NCBI GenBank assembly: GCA_038114285.1
Contig: JAYNQN010000001.1
Location: forward strand, 120,454-184,453
From: Gammaproteobacteria bacterium
GTDB lineage: Bacteria; Pseudomonadota; Gammaproteobacteria; Poriferisulfidales; GCA-002705445
DNA length: 64,000 nt
Direction of reading: 5' to 3'
The notes beneath the pieces are model-generated. The model was not told the DNA's origin. It saw nothing but the letters and a program-made list of their open reading frames with translations, and ran no database searches. How positions within the stretch are numbered: the first letter of the stretch is position 1; the number at the start of each line of letters is the position of its first letter. Of the stretch, positions 6,391-64,000 are shown piece by piece. Position numbers and translations under genes: made by a program.

Positions 6391-6407
6391 TATTAAGGAT
6401 GTAAGAA

Positions 6408-6704: not shown

Positions 6705-7047
6705 TGGAAAAATTAGTGAATCAATACCAAGTAAAAAATATTTTACTATTGGAGAAGTTAGTGAATTGTGTGATGTAAAATCTCATGTTTTAAGGTACTG
6801 GGAACAGGAGTTTCCAATGCTTTCACCAGTGAAAAGAAGGGGAAATAGAAGGTACTATCAAAGACACGATGTGCTTATGATTAGACAAATTAGAAGTCTT
6901 TTATATGAGCAAGGATATACAATCGAGGGTGCAAGAAAAAAATTATCAGATGATGATGCAAGCAATGATAACTCTATGTCATCACAGCTTGTCCATCAAT
7001 TATTATCTGAATTAGAAGATGTCTTGAATGTTCTAAAAAAAGATTAA
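6688..7047 (+). CDS. MerR-family transcriptional regulator
   Basis: [24 protein letters not shown] forms a helix-turn-helix of MerR type. A MerR-like gene follows ihfA in many gammaproteobacteria. The ORF overlaps ihfA by 17 nt and the true start is uncertain. Confidence 0.65.
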
Positions 7048-7078
7048 AATACAAATAAAACTAATAGAAGAAATATAA

Positions 7079-19266: not shown

Positions 19267-20142
19267 ATGAGCAACATAACTGCGCAAATGGTAAAAGAAC
19301 TAAGAGATAGAACAGGTGCTGGAATGATGGAGTGTAAGAAAGCGCTTACAGAAGCAGAGGGAAATATGGATTTAGCCGTTGATGCCATGAGAAAAGCAGG
19401 GCAAGCAAAAGCTGATAAAAAATCTTCGAGAATTGCCGCAGAAGGAGTTATTAGTTTATCTATGAATGATAGATGTGCAAACATGGTTGAAGTAAATTGT
19501 GAGACAGATTTTGTTGCTAAAGACGAAAATTTTTTAGAATTTGTAAATATTATATCTAATGCATCACTTGAGTCTTATAGTGGCAAATTAGATGATTTTA
19601 ATAAAAGCTCTCATTCATCTGGAAAAACTATAGAAGAAATTCGTTTAGAATTAGTAAGTAAAGTTGGAGAAAACGTTAAAATTAGAAGAATAAAGTCTTT
19701 TGAGAAGAATAATGCATACATAGGTCATTATATGCACGGAAATAAAATAGGTGTTGTAGTAACCCTAGAAAAAGAAAATGAAAATCTTGCGAAAGATATA
19801 TGTATGCATGTAGCAGCTATGAAACCTGCTGCACTAAATTCTGAAGATATTTCTAATGAAGATCTAGACAAAGAAAGAGAAATATTTATGGCTCAAGCAA
19901 AAGAAAGTGGTAAGCCAGAAGACATTGCTCAAAAAATGGTTGAAGGTAAAATAAAAAAATATATTTCAGAAGTTACATTGCTAAACCAGCCGTTTGTAAA
20001 AGATAACGATATTAAAATTAGTGATCTTCTTGATAAAAACGACAATAAAATCCTATCATTTTATAGGATGGAAGTTGGAGAAGGAATTGAGAAAAAGGAT
20101 GAGAATTTTGCTGACGAAGTGATGTCCCAAATAAAAAATTAA
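19267..20142 (+). CDS. tsf: Elongation factor Ts
   Basis: ITAQMVKELRDRTGAGMMECKKAL is the EF-Ts N-terminal signature; follows rpsB. Confidence 0.95.
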   Translation: MSNITAQMVKELRDRTGAGMMECKKALTEAEGNMDLAVDAMRKAGQAKADKKSSRIAAEGVISLSMNDRCANMVEVNCETDFVAKDENFLEFVNIISNASLESYSGKLDDFNKSSHSSGKTIEEIRLELVSKVGENVKIRRIKSFEKNNAYIGHYMHGNKIGVVVTLEKENENLAKDICMHVAAMKPAALNSEDISNEDLDKEREIFMAQAKESGKPEDIAQKMVEGKIKKYISEVTLLNQPFVKDNDIKISDLLDKNDNKILSFYRMEVGEGIEKKDENFADEVMSQIKN

Positions 20143-20148
20143 TTTTCT

Positions 20149-20847
20149 ATGAAAAGATACTTGCTAAAACTTAGTGGAGAAGCCCTTATAGGCAAGTATG
20201 ATTATGGTATTGATCCAGATATAGTTAGTCAAATTTCATCTAGTATTGTTGAGGTAAATAAAACAAAGAATCAATTAGCAGTTGTTGTTGGGGGCGGTAA
20301 TATTTTCAGAGGAGCTGGTTTAGCAGAAGCTGGATTAGATAGAGTTACTGGCGATAATATTGGGATGCTTGCAACAGTAATAAACTCATTAGCACTTCAA
20401 GATGAAATAGAAAAGACAGGCATTCAATGTAGAGTGATGTCAGCTGTCCGCATAAATCAAATATCCGAAGATTACATTAGAAGAAGAGCAATCAGGCACC
20501 TTGAAAAAAACAGAGTTGTAATTTTTGCCGCGGGCACAGGTAATCCTTTTTTTACTACGGATACTGCAGCTAGTTTAAGAGCAATAGAAATTAATGCTGA
20601 TATGGTATTAAAGGCTACAAAAGTTGATGGTGTTTATGATAAAGATCCAAATAAACATAAGGATGCAAAGTTTTATAAAGAATTAACATATAATCAAGTT
20701 TTAAATGATGAGTTAAAAGTAATGGATACTACAGCAGTGGTATTATGTAAAGAAAATAAAATTCCCTTAAGAGTATTTAATATGTTGAAAAAAGATTCAT
20801 TAATGAGCATTATTAATGGAGAAGATACAGGAACAATAATAAAATAA
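20149..20847 (+). CDS. pyrH: UMP kinase
   Basis: [19 protein letters not shown] and an amino-acid-kinase fold; 232 aa. Confidence 0.95.
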
Positions 20848-30564: not shown

Positions 30565-31700
30565 TTTTTTTTAAGCAAACGCTCTACTAAATCATAAATG
30601 TTTTCTTTAGATTTATCATCTAATAATTTACCTTCTAACGAGTCGTAGTCATCTAAAATCTTACTTATATAGTTTTTTTTATTTGTTAAATTTTCTATTT
30701 CACTCACCAAGTTATCACATGAAGCATTATATTGAATAAATTCTTTAATAGCATTTTTATTTAATACAATATTAACTAATGATATATATTTTATCTTTAC
30801 AAGAAACCTAGCAATAAAATATGTTAAATTAGATAACTTATAGAAAACGCACATAGGTATCTTTTTTAAAGCAATCTGCAAAGTAATTGTCCCAGAGGCA
30901 GCTACAGCAACTTTACACATATCAATAGTTTCATAAATATTCTTATTTGATATAAATTTAATATAGTTTTTTTCTGGAAAATTTTTTCTAAAAAAATCTT
31001 TATTTATATTACTTGAGCATGATATTAAAAACTTTTCTAAAGGATATTTTTTGTGGTATTTTTCAATAACACTTTTAATTATAGGAATATGTTTTTTAAC
31101 TTCATTTAGTCTACTGCCAGGAAAGAAGCCAATATATTTATAATTATTATGATATTTCTTTTTATATAAATTATTTTCTACAAGCGGATGCCCTACATAG
31201 GTAGCATTTACACCAAGTTTATTGTAATAATTTTTCTCGAATGGAAATATTACAGCCATTTCATCTACTGATTTTTTTATATTTTTAATTCTATTTTCTC
31301 TCCATGCCCAAACTTGAGGACTAATATAAAATAGAACTTTAATACCATTTTTTTTTGCATATCTTGCTAGTTTCATATTAAATTCTTGATAATCTATTAA
31401 TACCAATAAATCTGGTTTGATTGTTGTAATAGAATTTTTCATTTTATTTAGTGCACTTTTTAGTTTTGGGTATATTTTAAAAATTTCAATAAATCCAATC
31501 ACAGAAAGTTCTGATGAATTTACTATTATCTCTGCTTTAGTATCATGCATGTGAGTAGAACCCATGCCGTAAAATTTAATATGATTATATTTTGAAAGAT
31601 TATTAATAATATTTTTAGCATACATGTCTCCTGATTCTTCTCCTGCAACTAATATTATTTTTTTTATTTTTTTCATTTGATATTTTGTATTACTTCGCAA
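30561..31700 (-). CDS. lpxB: Lipid-A-disaccharide synthase
   Basis: 379 aa, GT19-like N-terminus (IILVAGEESGD). Sits on the opposite strand, overlapping the lpxA stop by 4 nt. Confidence 0.8.
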   Translation of the reverse strand: MRSNTKYQMKKIKKIILVAGEESGDMYAKNIINNLSKYNHIKFYGMGSTHMHDTKAEIIVNSSELSVIGFIEIFKIYPKLKSALNKMKNSITTIKPDLLVLIDYQEFNMKLARYAKKNGIKVLFYISPQVWAWRENRIKNIKKSVDEMAVIFPFEKNYYNKLGVNATYVGHPLVENNLYKKKYHNNYKYIGFFPGSRLNEVKKHIPIIKSVIEKYHKKYPLEKFLISCSSNINKDFFRKNFPEKNYIKFISNKNIYETIDMCKVAVAASGTITLQIALKKIPMCVFYKLSNLTYFIARFLVKIKYISLVNIVLNKNAIKEFIQYNASCDNLVSEIENLTNKKNYISKILDDYDSLEGKLLDDKSKENIYDLVERLLKKN

Positions 31701-32770
31701 ACTTTTTTAACTTCATCTTGAGTTAGATTTGGAAACATTGGTAGAGAAAGGCAGGTGTTTGCAATTAGATTTGAATTTTTGTATGCACATGAATCACTGT
31801 ATTTGTTTTTAAAAACTATTTGCTTTTCAAGCGACAAAGGATAATAAATTGCTGATGTAATATCATTTTTTTCTAATTCTTCTTTAATTGTATCTCTGGC
31901 TTCTGATGAAATAGTATATTGATGATAGACATGGAAACTATGATCTTCAGTTCTTGGTAGATTAATATAACTTATATTCTTTAATAAGCTGTTATAAGTC
32001 TTAGCTATATTTACTCTCTTTATGTTATTACTATCAATATACTTTAATTTTATATTTAATATTGCCGCTTGTATTTCATCTAGTCTGCTATTATAACCTA
32101 GTATGTTGTGATAGTATCTTTTGGAGCTACCATGGTTTTTTAATTTTTTGATAATATCATACGTCTCCTCGGAGTTTGTAGTCACCATACCACCATCACC
32201 GTAACAACCTAAATTTTTTGTTGGATAAAAACTAAAGCAGCCAATATCACCAATACTTCCAGTTCTTTGACAATTAATTCCAGCACCAAAACTTTGAGCA
32301 CAATCTTCAATTATTTTAATAGAGTCGTTATTGATTTCTTTTTTAAGTCCATTGATATCAAAAGGATTTCCAAATAGGTGAACTGGTATAATAGCTTTTG
32401 TTTTTTTTGTAATTTTTTTTAATATTTCATTTTTATCAATATTGTACGAATTTTTATCTATATCAGCGAATACTGGTTTAGCTCCAACATACATTATTGC
32501 CTCTAATGTAGATATAAAAGTAAAAGGAGTTGTTATAACTTCGTCATCTTTTTTAAGGCCAAGTGATCTTAATGCAAAATGAAGGGCATCAGTACCTGAA
32601 TTACATGATATTGCATATTTAGTCCCAATATATTTAGCAATATTTTTTTCAATAGATTCTACATTCTTCCCACCAATAAAACTGGTATTAGCAAAAACAT
32701 TCTCTAACTCAGCCTTAACTTCGTCTTTTATTAATGAATATTCTTTTTTTAAATCAAATTGAGGTATCAT
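31673..32770 (-). CDS. DegT/DnrJ/EryC1/StrS-family PLP-dependent sugar aminotransferase, putative UDP-3-keto-GlcNAc aminotransferase (GnnB-like)
   Basis: 365 aa with the sugar-aminotransferase fold (NSGTDALHFALRSLGL..., FSFYPTKNLGCYGDGG). Lies in the lipid A cluster next to lpxB and a Gfo/Idh/MocA oxidoreductase. Confidence 0.65.
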   Translation of the reverse strand: MIPQFDLKKEYSLIKDEVKAELENVFANTSFIGGKNVESIEKNIAKYIGTKYAISCNSGTDALHFALRSLGLKKDDEVITTPFTFISTLEAIMYVGAKPVFADIDKNSYNIDKNEILKKITKKTKAIIPVHLFGNPFDINGLKKEINNDSIKIIEDCAQSFGAGINCQRTGSIGDIGCFSFYPTKNLGCYGDGGMVTTNSEETYDIIKKLKNHGSSKRYYHNILGYNSRLDEIQAAILNIKLKYIDSNNIKRVNIAKTYNSLLKNISYINLPRTEDHSFHVYHQYTISSEARDTIKEELEKNDITSAIYYPLSLEKQIVFKNKYSDSCAYKNSNLIANTCLSLPMFPNLTQDEVKKVCEVIQNIK

Positions 32771-33693
32771 TTTTTTATAATTTTTGATATTTTTAAAGCA
32801 TACTGTAACGCATTAATACCATCATCTGCATTTACAATTGGTTTCTTTTTATTACTTATACAATTTAAAAAACTTTCTATCTCTTCTTTTAGCGAATCAT
32901 TATCAAGAAATTTATCCTGGGTTTTTTCAATATCTAATATACTACCTTTTTTAACTTTTTTATATGAATCTAGGATACAGTTCTGGTAATCAAGTGAATA
33001 ATACTCATTTTTTTGAAATACTCTCATTTTTCTTTCTATCTTATCACTTATTCTGCTTGACGAGAGGTTGCATACGCAGTTATTTTCAAACAGAATTCTT
33101 GCGTGAGCAATATCTATTGAATTTGTTAATACATTTATACCATTAGATTGAATATTTTTTATTTTTGAATTATTTAAGGATATAATAATATCAAGATCAT
33201 GAATCATCAAATCCATTATTACATCAACTTCAGTTCCTCTAATTTTAAAAGGTGATATTCTATTGCATTCTATAAACATTGGTTTTTTTATATGGCTAGA
33301 AAGTTTCGTAAAAGCTTTGTTAAACCTTTCTAAATGGCCAATTTGTAAAATTACGTTATTTTCTTCAGATAGTTTTTTAAGTGCTCTGGCTTCTTTTAAA
33401 TTACTTGCAAAGGGTTTTTCAATAAGAACATGTTTTTTATGTTTTATGAAGTATTTAGCTATTTTGAAATGAAGATTTGTTGGCACAACAATACTTACCG
33501 CGTCAACATAATTTATGATATCTTTAAAATCATGATATATTTTAACATTAAATTTTTTTGATATTTCATTACACCTATTTACATTAGTATCTACTATGCC
33601 TATTAGATCAGCAATTTTACTTTTGTAATATTTCTGTGCGTGAAATTCGCCTAGATACCCAACTCCTATAACAGCAACTTTAGTTTTTCTCAT
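32767..33693 (-). CDS. Gfo/Idh/MocA-family NAD-dependent oxidoreductase, putative UDP-GlcNAc 3-dehydrogenase (GnnA-like)
   Basis: 308 aa with an N-terminal Rossmann motif (KVAVIGVGYLGEFH); operonic with the aminotransferase and lpxB. Confidence 0.6.
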   Translation of the reverse strand: MRKTKVAVIGVGYLGEFHAQKYYKSKIADLIGIVDTNVNRCNEISKKFNVKIYHDFKDIINYVDAVSIVVPTNLHFKIAKYFIKHKKHVLIEKPFASNLKEARALKKLSEENNVILQIGHLERFNKAFTKLSSHIKKPMFIECNRISPFKIRGTEVDVIMDLMIHDLDIIISLNNSKIKNIQSNGINVLTNSIDIAHARILFENNCVCNLSSSRISDKIERKMRVFQKNEYYSLDYQNCILDSYKKVKKGSILDIEKTQDKFLDNDSLKEEIESFLNCISNKKKPIVNADDGINALQYALKISKIIKK

Positions 33694-42824: not shown

Positions 42825-44370
<1,546 letters not shown>

Positions 44371-53182: not shown

Positions 53183-54406
53183 ATGCTCTTAATTATAAAT
53201 AAATTAAAAAATGCAGATGTATATTTGTTACCAATAGCAATTTTTTTTATATTAATATCATCTGCAGGTACAAATATATTTATTTTATTAGCAGTATTAT
53301 TTTCATTGGTACACTGCATATACAAAAAAAATTACCAAATTCTATTTGAGAAAAATTTCCTTAAGATTTGCTTTTTAATATATTTTCTATTTTTAATATC
53401 GTCTTTATATAGTATTAGTAATTTTGAAGAAATAATTAGCTCTTTAAAAAAATATATTAAATTTCTATATATTCCTTTTATATATTACATTGTCAAAATA
53501 CATAAAAATGAAAAATTAATAATTAATTTTTTTATATTTGGCTCAACAATTATTTTGGCTTTGTCATATTTAAAATACTTTAATATATTCAATTTTGATA
53601 GTTTCTATGAATTTTTAAAAAATACTAATATTGCAAACCCTAAAGATAAAATAATTATTAATAAAACTTCCGTTTTTCAGAATTATATTGTGCATGGTGT
53701 TGTTTTTTCTTTTTATTCATTTCTTTGTTTTTATCTTGCAAAAAAAAATAATATCTTACAATATTATTCATTATCCTTAATGTCTTTATTAAACGTGTTA
53801 TTATTAAATGATTCACGCAAAGGATATATAATTATTTTAATTTTATCTGTTTTTACTTTTTTTCAATTAATTTCTAGCAATAAAATACGCTTATCAATAT
53901 TATTAATTTTTGGCTCAATATTTTTTACGCATTTTTCTGATAATTTATTAAATAGAGTAAATGTCTTAAGTAGTGATTTGTATTTTATAGATAAAAATAA
54001 TTATAATACATCGTTAGGTTATAGGTATATATGGACTAAAGTAGGAGTTGATAATCTTGCAAAGAAGCCTTTATTTGGTTTTGGTGCGGGGTCATACGAA
54101 AAAACGTCTGTAAGATATTATAAGGATAATAATGTAAATGATTATGATAGTTACATTACGAATAACCCACACAATGAATTTATAAGTATTTCAACCCAAT
54201 TGGGTTTAGTTGGTTTATCTTTATTTTTTATTTTTTTATATAATTTGTTTAAAGATTCAAATTACCAAACCGTTCCAATTGGTATAGTTATAACTGTTTT
54301 TGTTTCATCATTATTTAACAGCGCTTTTTATGATAATATGCTAGGATTATTTCTAATAATTATAATTAGTCTTTTATATCAAAATAATTTTAAAATTAAA
54401 AATTAA
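53183..54406 (+). CDS. waaL: O-antigen ligase (WaaL / Wzy_C-domain) family polytopic membrane protein
   Basis: About 10 predicted transmembrane helices and a periplasmic loop with GFGAGSYE...NNPHNEFISISTQLGLVGL, matching the Wzy_C/O-antigen-ligase signature. Confidence 0.6.
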   Translation: MLLIINKLKNADVYLLPIAIFFILISSAGTNIFILLAVLFSLVHCIYKKNYQILFEKNFLKICFLIYFLFLISSLYSISNFEEIISSLKKYIKFLYIPFIYYIVKIHKNEKLIINFFIFGSTIILALSYLKYFNIFNFDSFYEFLKNTNIANPKDKIIINKTSVFQNYIVHGVVFSFYSFLCFYLAKKNNILQYYSLSLMSLLNVLLLNDSRKGYIIILILSVFTFFQLISSNKIRLSILLIFGSIFFTHFSDNLLNRVNVLSSDLYFIDKNNYNTSLGYRYIWTKVGVDNLAKKPLFGFGAGSYEKTSVRYYKDNNVNDYDSYITNNPHNEFISISTQLGLVGLSLFFIFLYNLFKDSNYQTVPIGIVITVFVSSLFNSAFYDNMLGLFLIIIISLLYQNNFKIKN

Positions 54407-54412
54407 TAGAAA

Positions 54413-55213
54413 ATGAAATTTTTGCAAAATAATCTAGCAGTTAAAGATATTATTTTTTCTTTTAAAAATTTTTATTCTTGGTCATATTTATCTTATTTTG
54501 ACCTAAAATTAAAATATCGAAGAACATTTCTTGGGCCTTGGTGGGTTGTACTAGGAATTGCTATTTCCGCAACTGCGATGTGTTTCTTATGGAGTACAAT
54601 TTTTAATTTAGACTGGAAATCATATTTAACATATTTGTTTTCTGGTTTTATTATATGGATGTGGATAAGTCAACTTGTAATTGATGCGCCTGATATATTC
54701 TGTGGTAGCGCGTCAAAATATATTAAAGCTTACCCCAATCCTCCTATTTTTTATGTCTTTAGAAAATGTTTTTTAAGTTTTTTACTTTTTTTACACCATA
54801 TACCTCTTATAATTTTAGTAACAATCTTAGTAAATCAAAAAATTAATATAATTGTTATATATACACTACCTATAGGTTTATTTTTAATTTTTATAAATTC
54901 TATATTATTTACTACTATTATTGGAATGGTTTCTGCAAGGTATCGAGATATTGATCCTTTAGTGAAATCATTAATGCCGCCTATGCTCTTATTAACACCA
55001 GTATTATGGAAACCTGAAATGCTAGGCGAATATCATTCATACGTTTATTTAAATCCATTTACACATTTTGTAGGCATAGTTAGAAATGATTTAATTGGTT
55101 TGGAGTTTGATTTAAAAATATGGATTGGCGCTATTCTGATAACAATTTTTCAATTAATAATATTTTTTTTACTTTACTCAAAAAAGAGTAAAAGAATTGT
55201 ATTTTGGGTTTAA
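54413..55213 (+). CDS. wzm: ABC-2 type polysaccharide export permease (Wzm/KpsM-like)
   Basis: 266 aa, six transmembrane helices, an ABC-2 fold; overlaps the next ATPase gene. Confidence 0.75.
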   Translation: MKFLQNNLAVKDIIFSFKNFYSWSYLSYFDLKLKYRRTFLGPWWVVLGIAISATAMCFLWSTIFNLDWKSYLTYLFSGFIIWMWISQLVIDAPDIFCGSASKYIKAYPNPPIFYVFRKCFLSFLLFLHHIPLIILVTILVNQKINIIVIYTLPIGLFLIFINSILFTTIIGMVSARYRDIDPLVKSLMPPMLLLTPVLWKPEMLGEYHSYVYLNPFTHFVGIVRNDLIGLEFDLKIWIGAILITIFQLIIFFLLYSKKSKRIVFWV

Positions 55214-55974
55214 TTATGAGGTCAGAAATTATATTAAAAAATGTAAATTTAGATTTTCCGATATATGATGTTGAGTCATTATCTATAAGGAACAAAATAA
55301 GTAATTTTGGAAAAGTTATAGTTAATAAAACTTCTACAAATAAGTCTGGCTCTAGAATTGTTAAAGGCCTAAAAAATATTAATTTTAATATGAATCATGG
55401 AGATAGAATCGCTCTTCTTGGCCCCAACGGATCTGGTAAAACAACATTATTAAAACTTCTTGCTGGAATATATTCGCCAACATCGGGCACCCTAAGTAAA
55501 ATTGGTGATATAAGTTGTATGTTAGATATTGGATTTGGATTTGAACAAGACGCTACTGGATATGAAAATATAATATTATCAAATATTACACGAGGCCTGT
55601 CTAAAGATGATATTGAAAAAATATTACCAGATATTGCTGAATTTAGTGGCTTAGGGGAATTTTTAGATATGCCTTTCAGAACATATTCCAGTGGAATGCA
55701 AGCGAGACTTGCTTTTTCTTCAGCTATAGCAAATACCCCAGATATATTGTTAATAGATGAATTTTTTTCTACAGGCGATATTGATTTTTCAGAAAAAAGT
55801 AAAAAAAAGGTTTTGAAGATGATGGATAACTCATCAATATTAGTATTTGCATCACACGATCTAGAATTACTAGACTCAATATGCAATAAAGCTATATGTA
55901 TGCATAGTGGAGAAATAATTTTCTCAGGCAGTACGAAGGAAGCAATTGCACAATATAAATCAATTTATGAATAA
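55204..55974 (+). CDS. wzt: ABC polysaccharide export ATP-binding protein (Wzt/KpsT-like, no C-terminal carbohydrate-binding domain)
   Basis: Walker A GPNGSGKTT, signature YSSGMQARL, Walker B LLIDEF; 256 aa. Confidence 0.8.
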   Translation: MGLIMRSEIILKNVNLDFPIYDVESLSIRNKISNFGKVIVNKTSTNKSGSRIVKGLKNINFNMNHGDRIALLGPNGSGKTTLLKLLAGIYSPTSGTLSKIGDISCMLDIGFGFEQDATGYENIILSNITRGLSKDDIEKILPDIAEFSGLGEFLDMPFRTYSSGMQARLAFSSAIANTPDILLIDEFFSTGDIDFSEKSKKKVLKMMDNSSILVFASHDLELLDSICNKAICMHSGEIIFSGSTKEAIAQYKSIYE

Positions 55975-57418
55975 AAAATATAACTTAGATTATAAAGTAG
56001 ACCCATCATTTCAATGCACAAAATATGTAAAAGCTCATAATGAGAATAATTTTACTAAGCATAGTTACAAAGACCATATCGTTAGAGCAGATCTTTGTAG
56101 CTCTTTAATCTCGATACTTTTTAACACAAACAATATTGATACCTCCCTTTATTCAATAAAAAAATTTATAGATAAATCTGATGACCCAGCAAAATTACAA
56201 TTTTGTATAAAGATTGATAATGAATCTAATGTTACAGAAGAATTTTTAAAAAAAATATCTAAATATAAAAGTAATTTTGTAATCATCTCATCTCCAAAAG
56301 GCAGAGGTTACTTGGATCTTTGGCAATGGATTAATTTTTTATACAAAATTTCATCTAGAAAATCAAAATTTGTGATGAATATATCTGACGAAATGTATGT
56401 AAATGAAGATAAATGGGATAAGTTGTTAGAAAAATATTTAAATTTGACAGACGATAGAATTTTTCGTTTAAGAACATCTGTATATAAAAATAGAAATTAT
56501 AGCACTTTATTTGAATGCGGATATGCTCCAGACACAACTGCAATATATTCAAGAAAATATATTGAACTGCAAGGCGATTTTTCACCTTGTTTCGGACCTG
56601 ATAACGGTCAGCAATTTGTCGCATACTATTTAGCAACAATTAACTACCCAAGACATTATCAATTTTTAAGAGATTTTGTAATAGAAACAATTAGTTTTAA
56701 AGGCCAAGGAACAAATAAAGGTTTAGAAGGAGAATCAAGAAATCAAAGACTAGTGGATAATTATTTACTTTGGATAAATATGTTCAAATTTAAATTTCAA
56801 AGTATTTATTTGAAAAGAGCAAGAAAAATTCAAGTGGAAATTTTAAAATTTAATTTTCCAGATATTAATATAGTAGACAATATTTTTAAGCAAAGATTTG
56901 AACTAAGGTATACAGATGAAAATAATAGAAAAAATATAGTTTTAAAATTGTCATACAAAATATCAAAAATTAAACATTTGTGGCACAACATTAGTAAAAT
57001 AAATTTTTTTAAATGGCATACAGGTTATGATAGACCTTTAATATATGGAGTATTGACACATATATGCGTAAAATTTTTAAAAAAATTTCCAAAATTAAAA
57101 TCAGCAAAAAAAACATCTAATCCTATACTTATAAGAGTAATAGATAATTTTAGTGATAAGAGTTTAAAAATAAATAAGTCAATTAATTCAAGAATAAGAG
57201 TTTTAGAAAAATTTAAAATAATGGAATTCACAATATTTATTATTGCAATAATTTTATTAATTGTAATCTTTGTAGCAACATTTCCTAGTTTTAAAACTAA
57301 TTTATTAATACTTAATCAAAGATTTAAAATAATTAAAATTTATTCAAGAAAAAATTCATTTATTATCTCAAATAATAAAATAGATCAATCAAAAACAGTT
57401 GTTATAAGAGGCGATTAA
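55946..57418 (+). CDS. Hypothetical 490-aa protein with a single C-terminal transmembrane anchor; no recognisable family
   Basis: Lys/Asn-rich soluble region followed by a hydrophobic helix MEFTIFIIAIILLIVIFVATF near the C-terminus. Embedded in the glycan cluster between wzt and the nucleotidyltransferase. Confidence 0.4.
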   Translation: MHNINQFMNKKYNLDYKVDPSFQCTKYVKAHNENNFTKHSYKDHIVRADLCSSLISILFNTNNIDTSLYSIKKFIDKSDDPAKLQFCIKIDNESNVTEEFLKKISKYKSNFVIISSPKGRGYLDLWQWINFLYKISSRKSKFVMNISDEMYVNEDKWDKLLEKYLNLTDDRIFRLRTSVYKNRNYSTLFECGYAPDTTAIYSRKYIELQGDFSPCFGPDNGQQFVAYYLATINYPRHYQFLRDFVIETISFKGQGTNKGLEGESRNQRLVDNYLLWINMFKFKFQSIYLKRARKIQVEILKFNFPDINIVDNIFKQRFELRYTDENNRKNIVLKLSYKISKIKHLWHNISKINFFKWHTGYDRPLIYGVLTHICVKFLKKFPKLKSAKKTSNPILIRVIDNFSDKSLKINKSINSRIRVLEKFKIMEFTIFIIAIILLIVIFVATFPSFKTNLLILNQRFKIIKIYSRKNSFIISNNKIDQSKTVVIRGD

Positions 57419-57421
57419 TTT

Positions 57422-58612
57422 ATGAAGCAATGTGTAATTCTAGTTGGTGGAAAAGGAACTAGGCTAGGTGAGTTAACTAAAAATACACCAAAGCCAATGT
57501 TAGAGATAAATAATAAGCCTTTTTTACTTTACATAATTGAAACTATCGTTAGATATGGATTTACAGAAATAATACTATTAGCATCACATGCAAATAAAGT
57601 TCTAATAGATTACTTTAAAAAGAATAGCTATAAAAATTGCAAGATTAAGATTATTGTTGAGGAGGAACCGCTAGGGACAGGTGGTGCTTTAGTAAATGCA
57701 TTTGAGCATTTAAATGACAGTTTTTTTTGCTTAAATGGAGATTCTATAATTGAAGGTAATTGGTTATCTTTAGTTGAAAATTTTGATACTAATGCAGATG
57801 TTGTTATTGGACTTACCGAAACGAATGATTCATCTCGCTACGGGTCAATTGAAATACAAAATAAAAAAATTATTTCTTTTAATGAGAAGAATGAAAGTTC
57901 AAAATCTAAATTAATAAATGGAGGTATTTATTTACTGCGAAAATCTATATTTAAAAATCTTAAAAAAAATTTTATATCATTGGAAAATGATATATTTCCC
58001 AATATAGTTAATTCAGGAAAAGCTAATGGATTAAAAATAAAAGGTTTTTTTATAGACATTGGAACAGTTAAATCTTTAGAGTATGCAAGAAAAAGAGATT
58101 GGCAGAAAGATAAAAAAGCCGTGGTCTTTGATAGAGATGGTACACTAAATCATGATGAAGGATACACATATAAGATAGAAGACTTGTCATGGACTGACGG
58201 CGCTATAGATTTAATAAAATATCTAAATAACAATAATTATTTAGTTTTTGTTGCAACCAATCAAGCTGGTATAGCAAAAGGTAAATTCCTAGAAAGTGAT
58301 ATGTTTAAATTTCATGAAAATATGCAAGAGCAATTAAGAAAAGTAGGGGCACATATAGATAAATTTTATTATTGCCCATTCCATATTGAAGGGGTAGTTG
58401 ATAAATATAAAATTGATAGTAATGACAGAAAGCCTAATGTTGGGATGTTGCAAAGTATCTATCAAGAATGGAATTTACAAAAAAGCAAAATGATTATGAT
58501 AGGAGATAGAGACACTGACATAGAGTGCGCAGAAAAATTTAAAATACAGGGTTATAAATACAATATTAAAGATGATATAATGGAATTTTTTAAAAATAAA
58601 ATTAATTTTTAA
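57422..58612 (+). CDS. Bifunctional sugar-1-phosphate nucleotidyltransferase (HddC-like) / D-glycero-D-manno-heptose 1,7-bisphosphate phosphatase (GmhB)
   Basis: N-terminus VILVGGKGTRLGELTKNTPKPML is the NTP_transferase G-x-G-T-R-L motif. The C-terminal ~180 aa are colinear with E. coli GmhB: VFDRDGTLN...GY, VATNQAGIAKGKF, YYCPFH, RKPNVGML, MIGDRDTDIECA. Confidence 0.8.
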   Translation: MKQCVILVGGKGTRLGELTKNTPKPMLEINNKPFLLYIIETIVRYGFTEIILLASHANKVLIDYFKKNSYKNCKIKIIVEEEPLGTGGALVNAFEHLNDSFFCLNGDSIIEGNWLSLVENFDTNADVVIGLTETNDSSRYGSIEIQNKKIISFNEKNESSKSKLINGGIYLLRKSIFKNLKKNFISLENDIFPNIVNSGKANGLKIKGFFIDIGTVKSLEYARKRDWQKDKKAVVFDRDGTLNHDEGYTYKIEDLSWTDGAIDLIKYLNNNNYLVFVATNQAGIAKGKFLESDMFKFHENMQEQLRKVGAHIDKFYYCPFHIEGVVDKYKIDSNDRKPNVGMLQSIYQEWNLQKSKMIMIGDRDTDIECAEKFKIQGYKYNIKDDIMEFFKNKINF

Positions 58613-58617
58613 ATACA

Positions 58618-59313
58618 ATGAATTATGAAAATTTTATAAATGAGTTCAATAAAAAAGGGTATTTTATTCTTTCTGGAGTTTTTGAATCAAAAGATTGCGA
58701 AAAAATTATATCCGAAGCAAATAAAATTAAAGAAAAAGACAATAATTATCTTCCCTTAATGAATCCACATAAAAATTCTAAATCCATAATGGAAGCTATG
58801 GGAAATAAAACAATAATAAGATTTATAGAGTCTTATTTTAAAAATGAGGTTTATGGTTTACAAACAGAGTTTTTTTTTATGCCTCCACATACAAAAGGTT
58901 TTACGCCTCATCAAGATAATACATACGTGCAGGCTGATGAAAATTCATTTGTATCGGCTTGGGTTGCCCTTACAGATGTAAATGAAAAAAATGGTGGTTT
59001 GATAATTTGGCCAATGTCACATAAAGAAAAAAAACTGCAATCTTTGGAAAATATAGAAGAAAAATCATTTAATCAAGACCCTAACGCCAGAAGTAGAATA
59101 ACTATACTCCCGGATAGCTATAAAAAGATTACGCCATCTATAAAAAAAGGTGATGTTATTATGATTCATAGTTGGTTAGTTCATGCTTCAAATGATAACA
59201 AGTCTAAAGCAAATAGAAATGCCTTGTTATGCACTTATTTGAAAAAAGACGCAAATTTTAGGCCTGGAAATACTGCGAAAAGAAAACCTTTCAAATTAAT
59301 ATCTAATTTATGA
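58618..59313 (+). CDS. Phytanoyl-CoA dioxygenase (PhyH) family Fe(II)/2-oxoglutarate-dependent oxygenase
   Basis: 231 aa; HQD facial-triad motif (FTPHQDNTY) and a distal His in IHSWLVHAS; PhyH-like length and spacing. Confidence 0.6.
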   Translation: MNYENFINEFNKKGYFILSGVFESKDCEKIISEANKIKEKDNNYLPLMNPHKNSKSIMEAMGNKTIIRFIESYFKNEVYGLQTEFFFMPPHTKGFTPHQDNTYVQADENSFVSAWVALTDVNEKNGGLIIWPMSHKEKKLQSLENIEEKSFNQDPNARSRITILPDSYKKITPSIKKGDVIMIHSWLVHASNDNKSKANRNALLCTYLKKDANFRPGNTAKRKPFKLISNL

Positions 59314-60200
59314 ATAAAATAAACAAAGGACACATGGGATCTACAATAAAATTTTCTTCTAAAGAAGATGTAAAACTATTTTTAAAAGATTTCAATAGCC
59401 CCAGTAAAATAGTAGAACTCTTTTCTTCTTGGAAGTATCTGAACCAATATGATTTAAGTAAAATTAAGTTTAAAGAAGTTATAATTGATGAATTAATTAA
59501 AAAGAAATTGGTTGATGATTTAGTTTTTAGTAAAAATGAATATAAACTTGAGAAATTACATTTGTGTTTAAATTCAAAATATAAAACACTTGATGAGTCA
59601 GAGCAAAATAAAATATCTATTAGTTTTTATGAAACATCTAAAATATTAAATGATCTTTATGTGGAATTTATAAAAAATGTAATATCAAAAGATTTTAATG
59701 AGAAAATTTATTATCAGAAAGTTCCGACTTTTAGATTTCATTTTCCTAATCAGGAGGGTTACAACTGGAATGACAGGTACCATACAGATATCATGCTGGG
59801 CCATCCTCCCTATGAAAATAACATTTGGGTACCTTTTACAAATGCTTTTGGTAGCAATAGTATGAGACTGATGCCTTTGCAAGACAGTATTGACTTATTA
59901 AATGAGTGTAACAATGATTTTGAGGTTTTTGCAGAAAAAACTCAATACAATGAAGACTTTATGGATAATTTGAAAAAATGTTCAGATCCTTTGGAAATGC
60001 GCTATGGAGAATATATTATATTTGATTCAAGATGTTTGCATTGCACCCAGTACAATGATACAAAAGACACAAGAATAAGCATGGATATAAGAGTAATACA
60101 AGAAAGTGAGATAAAAAAATATTCACGTTCGTATACGACAACAGGTAGAAAAAAAATGCCTTTCTTGCCAGGTTATTACTTTTCCAAAGAAGCTTTATAA
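59310..60200 (+). CDS. Hypothetical protein, possibly a second divergent Fe(II)/2OG oxygenase-like enzyme
   Basis: 296 aa; a candidate HxD...H triad (RYHTDIM ... FDSRCLHCT). This is motif-level inference only. Confidence 0.35.
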   Translation: MNKINKGHMGSTIKFSSKEDVKLFLKDFNSPSKIVELFSSWKYLNQYDLSKIKFKEVIIDELIKKKLVDDLVFSKNEYKLEKLHLCLNSKYKTLDESEQNKISISFYETSKILNDLYVEFIKNVISKDFNEKIYYQKVPTFRFHFPNQEGYNWNDRYHTDIMLGHPPYENNIWVPFTNAFGSNSMRLMPLQDSIDLLNECNNDFEVFAEKTQYNEDFMDNLKKCSDPLEMRYGEYIIFDSRCLHCTQYNDTKDTRISMDIRVIQESEIKKYSRSYTTTGRKKMPFLPGYYFSKEAL

Positions 60201-60205
60201 AAAAT

Positions 60206-61153
60206 ATGAAAAATAAATTTAACAATGAAAAAGCATATTATCTATATTTACTTATAAGAAAAAGTGAAGAAAAAATTATAGATTTATATAGCACAGATAA
60301 AATAAAAAGCCCCGTACATTTATCAATTGGTCAAGAAGCAATTGCTGTAGGAGTAAGTTTGGCGTTAAAAGACGAAGACATAATTTTTAGTAATTACAGG
60401 GGACATGCTCATTATATAGCGCGAGAAGCAAACCTTGATAAAATGTGGGCTGAGCTTTATGGAAAAAGTAGAGGTACTGCGCGTGGTAAAGGTGGTTCTA
60501 TGCATTTAAATGATTGGGGTAAAAAATTTATGCCGACGTCAGCCATTGTATCGACTGCTATCCCTCAAGCTGTCGGTTATGCGTTCGCTCTCAAATATAA
60601 AAAACAAAATGGTATTGTAATTTGTTATCATGGTGATGGTGCTACAGAGGAGGGTGTCTTTTGGGAGTCTCTGAACTTTGCTAGTTTGCATGAACTTCCT
60701 ATTATATTTATTTGTGAAAACAATAAATATGCAATATACACACATCAAGATAAAAGAGTAAAAAATGATCCTATTATAGAGAGAGCAAATTCGTTTGGAG
60801 TAAAATCAAAAAAGATAAAGTTTGGATCTACTGAAGATTACTATAATGTAACATCAGAATGTATAAATAATATTAATAATAAAAGTGAACCATATTTGAT
60901 TGAGTGTGTAACTACAAGATGGAAAGATCACGTAGGAACTGGAGATGCATCTGATCTGAATTACCGTGATATGAGAGAAATTGATTTTGCAATTGAACAT
61001 GATGATTTAATTAATTTAGAAAAACAATTATCATCAGATGTAATTAAAAAAATTAAGTTACAAGTAGATAGAGAATTAGAAAATGCAGTAAATTTTGCTG
61101 AAGCAAGTAATTTTCCAAATAAAGAAGAACTTTATGATAACGTCTATGGATAA
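60206..61153 (+). CDS. Thiamine-diphosphate-dependent dehydrogenase E1 component, alpha subunit (pyruvate/acetoin dehydrogenase E1-alpha-like)
   Basis: 315 aa; the TPP-binding block GDGATEEGVFWESLNFASLHELPIIFICENNKYAI is the GDG...N motif of the E1-alpha family. Confidence 0.8.
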   Translation: MKNKFNNEKAYYLYLLIRKSEEKIIDLYSTDKIKSPVHLSIGQEAIAVGVSLALKDEDIIFSNYRGHAHYIAREANLDKMWAELYGKSRGTARGKGGSMHLNDWGKKFMPTSAIVSTAIPQAVGYAFALKYKKQNGIVICYHGDGATEEGVFWESLNFASLHELPIIFICENNKYAIYTHQDKRVKNDPIIERANSFGVKSKKIKFGSTEDYYNVTSECINNINNKSEPYLIECVTTRWKDHVGTGDASDLNYRDMREIDFAIEHDDLINLEKQLSSDVIKKIKLQVDRELENAVNFAEASNFPNKEELYDNVYG

Positions 61154-61158
61154 TAATA

Positions 61159-62208
61159 ATGAATTCAATTGTTGATAAAAAACTAATAAATTATGGTGAA
61201 GCTATTTACGAAGCTTGTTATCAAGAGATGGAAATTGATAAAAATGTTTTTGTGTACGGGCTCGGTGTTGACGATCCCAAAGGCCATTATGGAACTTCCA
61301 AAGATCTTCATAAAGTTTACGGTAAAAATAGAAGCTTTGATGTCCCCCTGTCAGAAGATGGTTTAACTGGCATAGGTATCGGTGCTGCGTTAGCTGGCTT
61401 AAGACCAATTTATGTTCATCAGCGAATGGATTTTCTTTTGTTATGTATGAATCAATTAGTGAACATGGCAGCTAAGATTAGATATATTTCTTCTGGCGAA
61501 CACTCGGTTCCAATCGTTATAAGGGCTGCAGTTGGAAGAAGCTGGGGACAAGGAGCTCAGCATAGTCAATCACTCCAATCATTTTTTATGCATGTTCCAG
61601 GTATAAAAGTTATTGCACCAACAACACCACATGACGCCAAAGGGGCGTTAATAGCAAGCATAAGAGACAATAATCCTGTTGTATTTATAGAGCATAGAAT
61701 GTTATACAATAACGCAGGATATGTGCCATCAAGTTTATATGAGGTACCTTTTGGTAAAGGAAGAATTTTAAAAGAAGGTAATGATATTACAATCGTAGGA
61801 GTAAGTTACACGGTAGAGGATTCGTTAAGAGCTTCAGAGTTACTGAAAGGCGTTGGTGTAAATGCCGAAATAATTGACCCAATAAGTTTATCACCAATAG
61901 ATTATGAGTTGATAAGAAAGTCAGTTTCTAAAACAGGAAAACTATTGGTTGTAGATAATGGATGGACAACATGTGGATTTTCATCAGAAATTATTACAGA
62001 TGTTGCAATAAATTGTAATAATGTAAGTTGTGAAAGAATTGGATTTTCAGAAACACCTTGCCCAACTACACCCAGTTTAGAAAATATATTTTATCCTACT
62101 CCACAGTCAATAGCAGTAAAAGCAAACGAAATGTGCGGTGGAGATTCAAAGTGGAGTCCTCCTGAGCAACCTGCAAAAGAAATTACTTCATTTAAGGGTC
62201 CATTTTAA
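61159..62208 (+). CDS. Thiamine-diphosphate-dependent dehydrogenase E1 component, beta subunit (transketolase-like)
   Basis: 349 aa with a transketolase pyrimidine-binding domain plus a C-terminal domain; paired with the upstream alpha subunit. No E2/E3 genes are adjacent. Confidence 0.8.
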   Translation: MNSIVDKKLINYGEAIYEACYQEMEIDKNVFVYGLGVDDPKGHYGTSKDLHKVYGKNRSFDVPLSEDGLTGIGIGAALAGLRPIYVHQRMDFLLLCMNQLVNMAAKIRYISSGEHSVPIVIRAAVGRSWGQGAQHSQSLQSFFMHVPGIKVIAPTTPHDAKGALIASIRDNNPVVFIEHRMLYNNAGYVPSSLYEVPFGKGRILKEGNDITIVGVSYTVEDSLRASELLKGVGVNAEIIDPISLSPIDYELIRKSVSKTGKLLVVDNGWTTCGFSSEIITDVAINCNNVSCERIGFSETPCPTTPSLENIFYPTPQSIAVKANEMCGGDSKWSPPEQPAKEITSFKGPF

Positions 62209-62291
62209 AATTTTTATTTTTTTTATTTGGTCAATAATTTGATATTATAAAAATAATGTTATTTTATAAATATTATAAACAAGGAATTTAA

Positions 62292-63302
62292 GTGAAAGCA
62301 TTAATAACTGGAATAACTGGAATGGTAGGCTCACATCTTGCAGATTATCTTCTGGAAAATACTGATTGGGAAATTCATGGCTTAATTAGATGGAGAAGTC
62401 CTTTGGATAATATTGAGGGATTAATAAAAAATATAAATAACAAAGAAAGAGTATTTTTACATTATGGTGACTTGCGAGATCCTCAGTCTTTAAATAAAGT
62501 TGTATCTGAAATAATTCCAGATTATGTATTTCACTTAGCAGCACAAAGCTATCCAAAAACAAGTTTTGATGCTCCAATAGATACTTATGATACAAATATT
62601 TCTGGAACATCAAATCTTTTAGAAGCTTTAAAAGTTTATGCGCAAGATTCGTGTATACACGTATGTGCATCATCAGAAGTTTTCGGAAGGGTTTCAAAAG
62701 ATAAACTACCGATAAATGAAGAGTGTTCATTTCATCCTGCTTCTCCATATGCAATTTCAAAAGTTGGAACGGATCTAGTAGGAAGATTCTATGCGGAAGC
62801 TTATGGAATGAAAATAATGACTACAAGAATGTTTACTCATACAGGACCTAGAAGAGGGGATGTTTTTGCAGAATCAACTTTTGCAAAACAAATTGCATTA
62901 GCAGAAGCAGGAAAAATTGATCCAATTATAAAAGTTGGAAACTTAAAATCTATGAGAACTATAGCTGATGTTCGAGATGCTGTAAGAGCTTATTATATGC
63001 TAGTTACAATAAACCCAACATCTGGTGAGTACTATAATATTGGAGGGAGTCATACGTGCACAATAGAGAAAATACTAAATGACTTGATCAATATATCTAC
63101 AATCAAAGATAAGCTTAAGATTGTTCAAGATAAAGACAGAATAAGACCAATTGACGCAGATTTGCAAGTTCCAGACACATCAAAATTTAAGAAGCATACT
63201 GGATGGGAGCCCAAAATACCATATGAAAAAACTATATCAGATTTATTAGATTTTTGGAGAGTGCAAGTTTCTAAAAATAATGGAAATTATTTAACAAGAT
63301 AA
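62292..63302 (+). CDS. Extended-SDR NDP-sugar 4,6-dehydratase (GDP-mannose/GDP-heptose 4,6-dehydratase Gmd/DmhA-like; Rmd-like reductase not excluded)
   Basis: GTG start; ITGITGMVGSHLADYLL Rossmann motif, a YxxxK region (SPYAISK) and HTGPRRG...F, colinear with the Gmd HESPRRGETF block. Confidence 0.6.
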   Translation: MKALITGITGMVGSHLADYLLENTDWEIHGLIRWRSPLDNIEGLIKNINNKERVFLHYGDLRDPQSLNKVVSEIIPDYVFHLAAQSYPKTSFDAPIDTYDTNISGTSNLLEALKVYAQDSCIHVCASSEVFGRVSKDKLPINEECSFHPASPYAISKVGTDLVGRFYAEAYGMKIMTTRMFTHTGPRRGDVFAESTFAKQIALAEAGKIDPIIKVGNLKSMRTIADVRDAVRAYYMLVTINPTSGEYYNIGGSHTCTIEKILNDLINISTIKDKLKIVQDKDRIRPIDADLQVPDTSKFKKHTGWEPKIPYEKTISDLLDFWRVQVSKNNGNYLTR

Positions 63303-63309
63303 TGATTAT

Positions 63310-64000
63310 ATGAATGACATAAATTTTATAAAATCATTAAATAAAGCAGAGCCTTTTTTAGATCATAAAAATGCAGTTTTAAGTGCGCCAATTAGGCATT
63401 TGTTTATGATTGGGGTTATCTGGTACTTAAATAAAAATAAAAAAATTACTAATATTTTAGAAATAGGATCATGGTTTGGAGCATCAACTTTATCATGGGC
63501 TCAAGGTTTATTAAAATACGCAAAATTAAATAGCTCTATCACATGTATAGATGCGTGGGAGCCTTTTTTTGATATGAATGTTCACGCAGATCATAATTAT
63601 GCTAACGAAATGGAACAACTGCTTGAGTCAGAATTTGCATACAATATCTTTTTGCACAATATGAGAACAATTAAGAAGGAATTAAAAACTCAGCACTTTA
63701 GAGGTAAAAGTGAAAATATATTATGCCAATTGAAAAATGAAATTTATGATGTTGTTTTTATAGATGCAGATCATACTTATAAATCTGTAAGCAAAGATAT
63801 TAAAAATTCATTGAGGCTAGTAAAAGATGGTGGAATAATTTGCGGAGACGATTTAAATTTGCAATTATGTGAAATTGATAAAGACTATGCAAATAAGAAT
63901 AAAGACAAAGACTTCATAAAAGATCCACTAACAAATAAAAATTATCATCCTGGGGTTACGCTTGCAGTTTTTGAAGAATTTGGCGAGGTTTCATCATGGG
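63310..64000 (+). CDS. Class I SAM-dependent methyltransferase of the TylF/MycF/CmcI family (3' end outside the window)
   Basis: ILEIGSWFGASTLSWAQ (SAM-binding motif I) and FIDADHTYKSV, matching the D-x-D-H-x-Y block of TylF/CmcI-type methyltransferases. Confidence 0.55.
   Translation, partial: MNDINFIKSLNKAEPFLDHKNAVLSAPIRHLFMIGVIWYLNKNKKITNILEIGSWFGASTLSWAQGLLKYAKLNSSITCIDAWEPFFDMNVHADHNYANEMEQLLESEFAYNIFLHNMRTIKKELKTQHFRGKSENILCQLKNEIYDVVFIDADHTYKSVSKDIKNSLRLVKDGGIICGDDLNLQLCEIDKDYANKNKDKDFIKDPLTNKNYHPGVTLAVFEEFGEVSSW

Follow-up and report, generated by a model that had tools for sequence, protein, structure and literature searches.

An E1-type enzyme encoded in a surface-glycan operon is the subject of this analysis. 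Its alpha- and beta-like subunits are the products of two adjacent genes at 60206-62208 of a 64,000-nucleotide stretch of a gammaproteobacterial contig (JAYNQN010000001.1), the whole of which is referred to here as the window. The pair, which depends on thiamine diphosphate (ThDP), is probably an E2-independent carboligase of the alphaKADH2 class that, judged from its sequence and surroundings, would add a two-carbon branch to a keto-sugar derived from guanosine diphosphate (GDP)-heptose and destined for the surface of this uncultured marine host. The identities of the genes, the structure of the operon, the absence of E2 and E3, the placement beside Pau11 and Pau12, and the linkage to genes for GDP-heptose synthesis and for 4,6- and 3-dehydratases are established here, and the donor, the acceptor, the position of attack and the order of steps are predicted from context and homology. 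An initial annotation of this DNA had suggested that the pair catalyses C-branching of a keto-sugar, and the clade to which it belongs, its lack of E2 and E3 and its glycan linkage all support this suggestion, the reaction itself being read from them.

An E1-like pair had been annotated at this position, and both open reading frames (ORFs) are indeed intact at exactly these coordinates, with E1 domain matches far beyond chance. The alpha subunit has an intact ThDP motif (G143-D-G145 ... N172-N173) and the beta subunit carries the activating Glu within PLSEDG (63-68), although the combination of E1_dh and Transket_pyr/Transketolase_C domains with GDG...NN and Glu is common to all E1-type enzymes and is therefore non-discriminating. 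The best PDB and NCBIfam matches of both subunits are the E1 subunits of pyruvate dehydrogenase (PDH), with ~35-40% identity to human PDH E1, and His242 of alpha and His135 of beta (in AQHSQ) align with human alpha-His263 and beta-His128, respectively. Against the PDH E1 equivalogs both subunits fall under the cut-offs, with the alpha subunit scoring 282 bits with TIGR03182 (cut-off 393.85) and 182 with TIGR03181 (cut-off 411), and the beta subunit 290 bits with PRK09212 (cut-off 321) and 262 with PRK11892 (cut-off 454). Matches to DXS and transketolase are weak, and that to TPP_enzyme_C is both weak and partial.

The pair had been described as an orphan with no linked lipoyl-E2, a description that stands. 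No E2 or E3 is found among all window ORFs of at least 150 amino acids (aa), and a search for motifs across 6522 ORFs, taken from the window and 90 related loci, returned no lipoyl-attachment motif and no E3 redox motif, with DHRxxDG present in a single ORF, at locus L041. For the canonical reference loci E2 adjoins E1 in all five, and E3 does so in four. A role as the E1 of a dehydrogenase complex was considered and rejected on this search, empty save for the L041 motif.

The relationship to other E1 enzymes was addressed with neighbour-joining (NJ) trees (200 bootstraps), which are distance-based and of moderate support. The canonical references were the PDH of Bacillus velezensis, the acetoin dehydrogenases of Enterococcus faecium and Acinetobacter, the branched-chain 2-oxo acid dehydrogenase (BCKDH) of Rhizobium leguminosarum and a Sinorhizobium complex, all chosen as E2-linked pairs and all, apart from the BCKDH locus, also E3-linked, together with human PDH E1 through PDB alignments. 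In place of AviB1/AviB2, AlmDI/DII and EvdU5/S3 the comparison uses Pau11/Pau12 together with a pair from Kibdelosporangium. Protein P0298, named Pau12 in UniRef, came from a search that started from a homologue on a Streptomyces plasmid, and its identity rests on that name and on the paulomycin-type context of its locus (L102), where an aldo-keto reductase, a glycosyltransferase, a hexose 2,3-dehydratase and a chorismate-binding enzyme are encoded, with the Pau11 alpha gene upstream. Aligned end to end over 346 residues, the window beta subunit and Pau12 share 41% identity, and the alpha subunit and Pau11 share 35%. In the beta tree all canonical E1s fall outside a clade made up of the glycan-locus sequences and six of Pau12 type, five of them actinobacterial (Kibdelosporangium among them) and one from a Rokubacteria metagenome-assembled genome (MAG). 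The bootstrap of this clade is 84.5%, and it becomes 91% with the tail columns removed. The alpha tree holds the corresponding Pau11 clade at 76%, with the canonical E1s outside. In the phylogenetic comparison that the initial annotation had called for, the pair thus clusters with Pau11/Pau12 and not with PDH, acetoin dehydrogenase or BCKDH. The window alpha motifs SPVHLSIGQEA and RWKDHVG also recur as SPVH(L/F)SIGQEA and RW(K/R)(D/E)HVG in both Pau11 and the glycan-locus lineage.

One member of the Pau12 clade lies in a different setting. This protein, from Streptomyces griseofuscus plasmid pSGRIFU1 (L092, 13986-16032), is 73% identical to Pau12, and its gene is next to one for a condensation-domain protein, with acyl carrier protein and ketosynthase genes of non-ribosomal peptide/polyketide synthase (NRPS/PKS) type further on and no annotated sugar genes within 15 kb. 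Non-sugar acceptors may thus be used as well in the lineage's actinobacterial branch.

A second feature of the lineage is found at the C-terminus of the beta subunit, which is ~20 residues longer than that of canonical E1 beta. Nearly all full-length beta subunits of the ~80 aligned loci, across phyla, end in F-[KR]-G-P-F, the exceptions being mainly those of Solidesulfovibrio, with a few other rows cut by a contig end or garbled. Pau12 ends in FQGPF, and the other Pau12-type proteins, mostly actinobacterial, in F-x-G-P-Y (FVGPY in Kibdelosporangium). The extension is lacking in all five canonical E1 beta subunits with complete C-termini, and human PDHB stops short of the region in the PDB alignment. 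The F-x-G-P-[FY] signature was derived in this analysis and is not an established class criterion. In a Geobacillus structure of E1 with the peripheral subunit-binding domain, the canonical E1 beta C-terminus reportedly lies near the beta-dimer axis, the docking site of the E2 binding domain, and a conserved beta extension there is at least consistent with life without E2.

What, then, would the substrate of such an enzyme be? The gene that follows the pair encodes a short-chain dehydrogenase/reductase (SDR) that matches a GDP-D-glycero-D-manno-heptose 4,6-dehydratase (7US5) far above the GDP-mannose dehydratases (362 against ~143 bits), and it is for this reason that the sugar scaffold is taken to be GDP-heptose. 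The initial annotation had expected the acceptor to be a 4-keto-6-deoxy nucleoside diphosphate (NDP)-sugar supplied by this dehydratase; the match supports that expectation and refines it, the scaffold being a GDP-heptose and not a hexose. The dehydratase is conserved in loci of other phyla, where it is 51-71% identical.

The same linkage is seen among the relatives, 378 of which were found in a scan of one genome per species, with the best 80 of the 378 kept. Marine metagenomes, together with MAGs and single-amplified genomes labelled as Gammaproteobacteria, some with contigs of ~1.06-1.12 Mb, supplied the close alpha homologues (62-99% identical, and 58% in MAG L017), and in these the position after purA and the gene order are as in the window. 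The 72 distant loci, whose alpha subunits are 45-53% identical to that of the window, are spread over more than 10 phyla; their hosts are Alphaproteobacteria, including the cultured Pseudokordiimonas caeni and Skermanella aerolata, a Legionella MAG, Planctomycetota (including Brocadia), Omnitrophota, Nitrospirota, Chloroflexota, Cyanobacteria, Verrucomicrobiota, Cloacimonadota and Acidobacteriota. Cultured carriers in plasmid records are Azospirillum lipoferum 4B, A. ramasamyi, A. thermophilum, A. oryzae and Solidesulfovibrio magneticus RS-1, and a homologue search seeded with the Legionella-MAG alpha subunit returned environmental proteins only. GDP-heptose or deoxysugar genes are located within 10 kb of the pair in 67 of the 72 distant loci, in keeping with orthologues that are confined to glycan loci, and three of the other five sit on contigs of only 2.4-7.3 kb.

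In relatives the gene directly after E1 beta is often a further sugar enzyme, with matches to ColD (2GMS and 3GR9, E ~1e-87) and to CDP-sugar 3-dehydrases. In the alignment, His occupies the position of the Schiff-base Lys in all 64 ColD-like DegT copies, of which 41 directly follow E1 beta, and because His stands for the catalytic Lys they are assigned as ColD-type 3-dehydratases. The Lys is kept in five more distant DegT proteins of these loci, none of them beside E1 beta, and in an unrelated DegT gene of the window that served as the alignment reference. A role for this neighbour as a branch-aminating aminotransferase was rejected, given His for Lys in 64/64 copies and the ColD match of 4e-88. 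At the level of the family the core consists of GDP-heptose synthesis, the 4,6-dehydratase, the 3-dehydratase and the E1 pair, and the core members other than the pair would together yield GDP-3,6-dideoxy-4-keto-heptose, which is a proven intermediate in Campylobacter jejuni (PMC10440746). This compound is the GDP-heptose counterpart of CDP-4-keto-3,6-dideoxyglucose, the acceptor to which YerE adds the two-carbon branch found in yersiniose (PMC9306805).

The window has no 3-dehydratase gene, and only an 83-bp gap (62209-62291) separates E1 beta from the dehydratase. The gene is likewise missing from L001, L009, L010, L012, L013 and L016, and is present in L003-L008, L014, L015 and L018, where examples between E1 beta and the dehydratase are found at L007:12117-13397 and L003:11984-13255. 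Its presence or absence among close genomes is a cassette-type variation that would switch the sugar between a 3-hydroxy and a 3-deoxy form. Since the window has no such gene, the acceptor on offer would be GDP-6-deoxy-4-keto-heptose, with the 3-hydroxyl kept.

In the proposed pathway the adjacent 4,6-dehydratase would yield GDP-6-deoxy-4-keto-D-lyxo-heptose. The E1 pair would decarboxylate pyruvate to hydroxyethylidene-ThDP, and this acyl-anion equivalent (enamine) would attack the C4 carbonyl to give a 4-C-acetyl tertiary alcohol. The branch or the ring would be tailored by a reductase, two Fe(II)/2-oxoglutarate (Fe/2OG) oxygenases and a methyltransferase, and the branched heptose would be polymerised into a polysaccharide that is exported via the ABC transporter. 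A reductase is not present in the window, and the candidates for a side-chain ketoreductase of the Pau7 or YerF kind are SDRs further downstream in relatives and an Fcl-like SDR upstream of the pair in other phyla. There is precedent for such chemistry, in that a pyruvate-derived C2 unit is added to keto-sugars by E1-type pairs according to knock-out and feeding work on aldgamycin and the genetics of avilamycin, and in that KbDH-alpha/beta performs C2 addition in vitro with pyruvate and cyclic ketones; the acetyl branch is afterwards reduced, oxidised, methylated or transaminated (PMC12247030, PMC4802897).

A number of points weigh against this assignment. The glycan-locus clade has been assigned from sequence, and the trees behind it are of NJ type with moderate support. 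Membership of the clade is by itself no proof of a sugar acceptor, because the S. griseofuscus member adjoins NRPS/PKS genes. The canonical lipoyl-reducing His residues are retained, so that they offer no argument against lipoyl chemistry. In many loci an Fcl/ColC-like 4-reductase encoded beside the pair would compete for the 4-keto group, and the window variant is without the usual 3-dehydratase, so that its acceptor would be unlike the family norm.

The alternative that survives best retains the enzyme class and changes the chemistry. The attack would be at C3 after keto-isomerisation, or on a C7 aldehyde to give a nonose, or pyruvate would be replaced as donor by a different 2-oxo acid, for instance hydroxypyruvate or a functionalised keto acid of greater length. 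Branching at C3 as well as C4 is known among alphaKADH2 enzymes (PMC12247030), YerE-like enzymes take C4-C8 keto acids for erwiniose and caryophyllose (PMC9306805), the clusters of relatives hold a second divergent E1-like pair and extra SDRs, and the 4-reductase beside many pairs suggests that C4 may be reduced rather than branched. However, C4 is the only carbonyl demonstrably generated by the conserved neighbours, and the alphaKADH2 enzymes seem specialised for pyruvate C2 units (PMC12247030); this alternative is unlikely, though it carries some weight.

Far less probable is a genuine PDH or acetoin dehydrogenase E1 that borrows a distant E2/E3 to supply acetyl-CoA, for instance for glycan O-acetylation, or a metabolic gene that has landed in the cluster by chance. 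The PDH E1 best matches and both conserved catalytic His residues agree with it, as does the published interpretation of the Coxiella homologues (PMC5423948), but the sub-cut-off scores, the position outside the E2/E3-linked clade, the absence of E2/E3 in ~90 loci, the strict heptose/deoxysugar linkage across phyla and the beta extension all speak against it. A function before the nucleotide-sugar stage, like that of a transketolase or DXS, in which the pair would make or remodel a sugar-phosphate precursor such as sedoheptulose 7-phosphate or a 1-deoxy-ketose phosphate, would draw on the fold common to E1, transketolase and DXS, on the weak matches to the latter two and on the start of the heptose pathway from a transketolase product; yet the family match is E1_dh and not Transketolase_N, the pair adjoins nucleotide-sugar 4,6- and 3-dehydratases rather than GmhA or the kinase, and its clade partners Pau11/12 act on NDP-sugars, making such a role very improbable. 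It is equally hard to credit a decarboxylase or C-C lyase that shortens the sugar by acting on a sugar-borne 2-oxo acid or acyloin, such as a heptose side chain oxidised by an oxygenase, for which the two oxygenases directly upstream in marine variants and the acetoin-cleaving Ao:DCPIP oxidoreductase of the same superfamily (PMC12247030) could be cited, when most members keep the pair without oxygenases (PhyH-like in 4/72 distant loci) and no enzyme generating a sugar 2-oxo acid is conserved with it.

The C2-branching carboligase may also be viewed at the level of its lineage. It is an evenly balanced proposition that the FxGPF lineage is a large family of E2-independent E1 carboligases in the GDP-heptose surface glycans of more than 10 phyla, making C-branched (acetyl- or hydroxyethyl-) or chain-extended heptoses. 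No description was found of this lineage, which includes abundant streamlined marine bacteria. C-branched or chain-extended heptoses of this kind would be nine-carbon sugars, of which no report was found in the literature searched.

Two variations within the lineage deserve mention. Alpha-beta fusions of ~690-700 aa occur at L058, L081, L088, L072 and L025 (cyanobacteria and others) and on a Streptomyces albogriseolus plasmid (L096:10924-13029), and such fusions point to a self-contained enzyme. A more distant pair on an Azospirillum oryzae plasmid (L095, 9037-11086), whose beta subunit ends in FRGPF, is accompanied by a PfkB-type kinase, an SIS gene, two DegT-family genes, a radical-SAM gene and a NUDIX gene; this looks like a different heptose-type pathway that has recruited the same enzyme class.

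Table 1. Features of the glycan operon in the window, and genes that neighbour the E1 pair in the 72 distant loci.
Feature	Position	Strand	Evidence or remark
Wzy_C / O-antigen-ligase-like membrane protein	53183..54406	+	PF04932 E 5.2e-19; first operon gene
ABC-2 type permease (Wzm-like), polysaccharide exporter	54413..55213	+	PF01061 E 5.5e-5, under gathering score
ABC transporter ATPase (Wzt-like)	55204..55974	+	PF00005 E 2.6e-22
490-aa protein, family unassigned	55946..57418	+	paralogues recur in relatives' clusters
Fusion of HddC-like sugar-1-phosphate nucleotidyltransferase and GmhB-like heptose-bisphosphate phosphatase	57422..58612	+	PF00483 E 2e-36 + HAD domains
PhyH-family Fe(II)/2-oxoglutarate oxygenase	58618..59313	+	PF05721 E 6.4e-27; HxD motif H98-Q-D
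Second, divergent Fe/2OG oxygenase, 'sporadic carbohydrate cluster' type	59310..60200	+	HxD motif H158-T-D
E1 alpha-like ThDP-binding subunit, 315 aa	60206..61153	+	PF00676 E1_dh E 4e-59
E1 beta-like subunit, 349 aa, with C-terminal extension	61159..62208	+	PF02779 E 7.7e-32, PF02780 E 5.5e-27
F-K-G-P-F, last five codons of E1 beta	62191..62205	+	lineage C-terminal signature
GDP-D-glycero-D-manno-heptose 4,6-dehydratase (SDR)	62292..63302	+	PDB 7US5 E 3.4e-107, 362 bits
Class I SAM methyltransferase (Methyltransf_24), partial at window end	63310..64000	+	PF13578 E 5.8e-19
DegT-family neighbour			55/72 distant loci
HddA-like kinase neighbour			51/72 distant loci
Fcl-like SDR neighbour			46/72 distant loci
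HddC/GmhB neighbour			38/72 distant loci
Orthologous dehydratase neighbour			36/72 distant loci; mostly 51-71% identical
GmhA neighbour			15/72 distant loci

The setting of the pair is a window of ~29% G+C with housekeeping synteny typical of Gammaproteobacteria (rpsB-tsf-pyrH-frr-uppS-cdsA-dxr-rseP-bamA-skp-lpxD-fabZ-lpxA and hflK-hflC-hisZ-purA). Straight after purA a glycan operon begins, with genes on the same strand from 53183 to the window end (Table 1) and, downstream of 57422, tight packing with intergenic gaps of -4 to +83 bp. The position of its first gene is conserved in relatives L007 and L009, and the permease is 63-79% identical across relatives. The HddC-GmhB fusion, which would serve the activation of GDP-heptose, scores 152 bits with the HddC and 125 bits with the GmhB model of NCBIfam, each under its equivalog cut-off, and the relatives' clusters also carry a GHMP kinase (HddA-like) and GmhA (SIS).

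The initial annotation had the pair flanked by a 4,6-dehydratase and a methyltransferase. Downstream this holds, with the two genes at 62292-63302 and from 63310 to the window end; upstream, two Fe/2OG oxygenases adjoin the pair. The first, whose PDB relatives are PhyH and SnoK, is presumed to be a tailoring enzyme. The second matches TIGR04324 (E 9.4e-23, 81 bits against a cut-off of 150), and a PDB sequence search gave no relative for it. The two are kept together upstream of E1 alpha in loci of marine Gamma- and Alphaproteobacteria. The methyltransferase, cut by the window end, is complete in L001, L003 and L009, and is ~280 aa in relatives.

The 490-aa protein has no match in Pfam or NCBIfam profile searches, and paralogues of ~30% identity are found downstream in the L001-L018 clusters. 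It may be a glycosyltransferase or a polymerase, which is a guess. The paralogues number 2-3 per cluster, as at L009:14014-15042 and L003:2771-4642, 4650-7061 and 19720-20706, with a weak methyltransferase-like region in one L003 copy, and the family is a candidate for novel glycosyltransferases or polymerases.

Beyond the window end the clusters of relatives continue with an unassigned protein, a family 2 glycosyltransferase, a GHMP kinase (HddA-like) and an SDR. In one set of relatives the cluster then runs through a DJ-1/PfpI protein and two small proteins to a second E1-like pair of divergent sequence; in the other set a short-chain dehydrogenase and an SIS (GmhA-like) gene follow. The second pair (L009:19707-20951, L010:16848-18092, L001:19631-20945, and also L012 and L013, all loci without the 3-dehydratase) comprises subunits of 276 and ~304 aa that are ~30% identical to the first pair, and by synteny it would lie ~7 kb past the window end. 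It is preceded by the DJ-1/PfpI protein, a weak cupin and a small HAD-like protein, and in the alpha NJ tree its alpha subunit forms a long branch within the same non-canonical clade. This second pair may carry out a further C-C bond-forming step.

Two observations concern the remainder of the window. The enolase gene (42825-44108) has an in-frame TAA at 43131-43133 that divides it into same-frame ORFs of 101 and 316 aa; the stop stands in place of the Glu that enolases, such as that of E. coli, have in the conserved DGT-E-NKS motif. Because the gene is essential, a fault of sequencing or assembly, or else a rare variant, is the probable cause. On the minus strand, between lpxB and rnhB, 31673-33693 encodes a DegT-type aminotransferase with its catalytic Lys kept and a Gfo/Idh/MocA oxidoreductase, a pair that presumably resembles GnnA/GnnB, which make UDP-GlcNAc3N for a diamino-sugar lipid A backbone.

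If the carboligase assignment is true, genes now labelled 'acetoin/pyruvate dehydrogenase' or 'transketolase C-terminal domain protein' would be glycan-tailoring enzymes, with annotation errors that touch hundreds of species-level genomes and thousands of metagenomic proteins. It would also mean that marine and soil bacteria display branched heptoses of a new family on their surfaces, with relevance to phage and grazer recognition and to antigenicity, and a ready set of the ketone-accepting, tertiary-alcohol-forming ThDP carboligases that are sought in biocatalysis (PMC12247030). Should the lineage-wide proposition hold, the YerE-only view of branching in Gram-negative lipopolysaccharide (LPS) would be overturned and the 'pyruvate dehydrogenases' of the Coxiella O-antigen region reassigned. 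Cultured carriers are available in Azospirillum lipoferum 4B, Solidesulfovibrio magneticus RS-1, Skermanella aerolata and Pseudokordiimonas caeni.

How does the pair compare with known systems? With the E1 of PDH, acetoin dehydrogenase and BCKDH it has in common the fold, the ThDP motifs and the catalytic His, and it differs from them in having no E2/E3 partner, sub-cut-off scores, a separate clade and the extra beta tail. The GDP-6-deoxy- and GDP-3,6-dideoxy-heptose pathways of C. jejuni have the orthologous 4,6-dehydratase (7US5), the C3-dehydratase seen here in relatives and the same 4-keto intermediates; there, however, a four-enzyme pathway without a ThDP enzyme epimerises and reduces the 4-keto group (PMC10440746), whereas here the E1 pair is inserted among the genes. 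Nothing relevant came from a literature search for ThDP enzymes encoded in clusters for heptose, capsule or O-antigen.

In Coxiella burnetii the horizontally acquired 'pyruvate dehydrogenase' genes CBU_0686 as well as CBU_0692 and CBU_0693 have been read as boosting acetyl-CoA (PMC5423948), and the O-antigen-region homologues have been interpreted in terms of fatty-acid and energy metabolism (PMC5423948, PMC13552124). These genes are within the cbu0664-cbu0704 O-antigen region, together with a heptose-1-phosphate nucleotidyltransferase that is needed for phase I LPS (PMC13552124), and they may encode the same kind of glycan enzyme.

Sugar branching in Gram-negative LPS has been assigned to the single-chain YerE type and the E1 type to secondary metabolites (PMC4753412, PMC12247030). 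YerE and ErwE, acetolactate-synthase-like ThDP enzymes for yersiniose and erwiniose, resemble the present system in their nucleotidyltransferase, 4,6-dehydratase, PMP/PLP 3-dehydratase (in relatives), carboligation at a 4-keto group, side-chain reduction and destination in LPS or another surface glycan (PMC9306805, PMC4753412). YerE, however, is a single-chain decarboxylase-type flavoprotein (TPP_enzyme_N/M/C) that uses a CDP-hexose, and the window enzyme is a two-subunit E1 type from an unrelated ThDP fold family in a GDP-heptose pathway. The pair may thus act like YerE without being a member of that family.

The closest likeness is to the alphaKADH2 class, in which AviB1/AviB2, Pau11/Pau12, Plm8/9 and KbDH-alpha/beta have been placed (PMC12247030); for the acetyl branch at C4 of paulomycose, the AviB1/AviB2 homologues Pau11/Pau12 are the proposed catalysts (PMC4753412, PMC4802897). 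Pau11/12 (= Plm8/Plm9) and AviB1/B2 are pairs that put a two-carbon branch from pyruvate on C4 of an NDP-4-keto-deoxysugar, in a class that also takes in KbDH, AlmDI/DII and EvdU5/EvdS3, and the first two share with the window pair the separate alpha and beta subunits, the lack of E2/E3, the sugar cluster and the adjacent 4,6-dehydratase. They differ in host and product, serving actinomycete antibiotics rather than the surface polysaccharide of a Gram-negative marine bacterium and of many other phyla, in scaffold, which is a dTDP- or UDP-hexose or pentose rather than a GDP-heptose, and in companions, which for the window pair are two Fe/2OG oxygenases and in most relatives a ColD-type 3-dehydratase. 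An in-silico study is said to list ~120 clusters that contain alphaKADH2 enzymes, among which part of the glycan-locus lineage may already have been seen. The window pair itself displays the features of the class as a stand-alone pair in a sugar cluster, belonging to the Pau11/12 clade, with a neighbour that makes a keto-sugar and with the C-terminal tail on its beta subunit.

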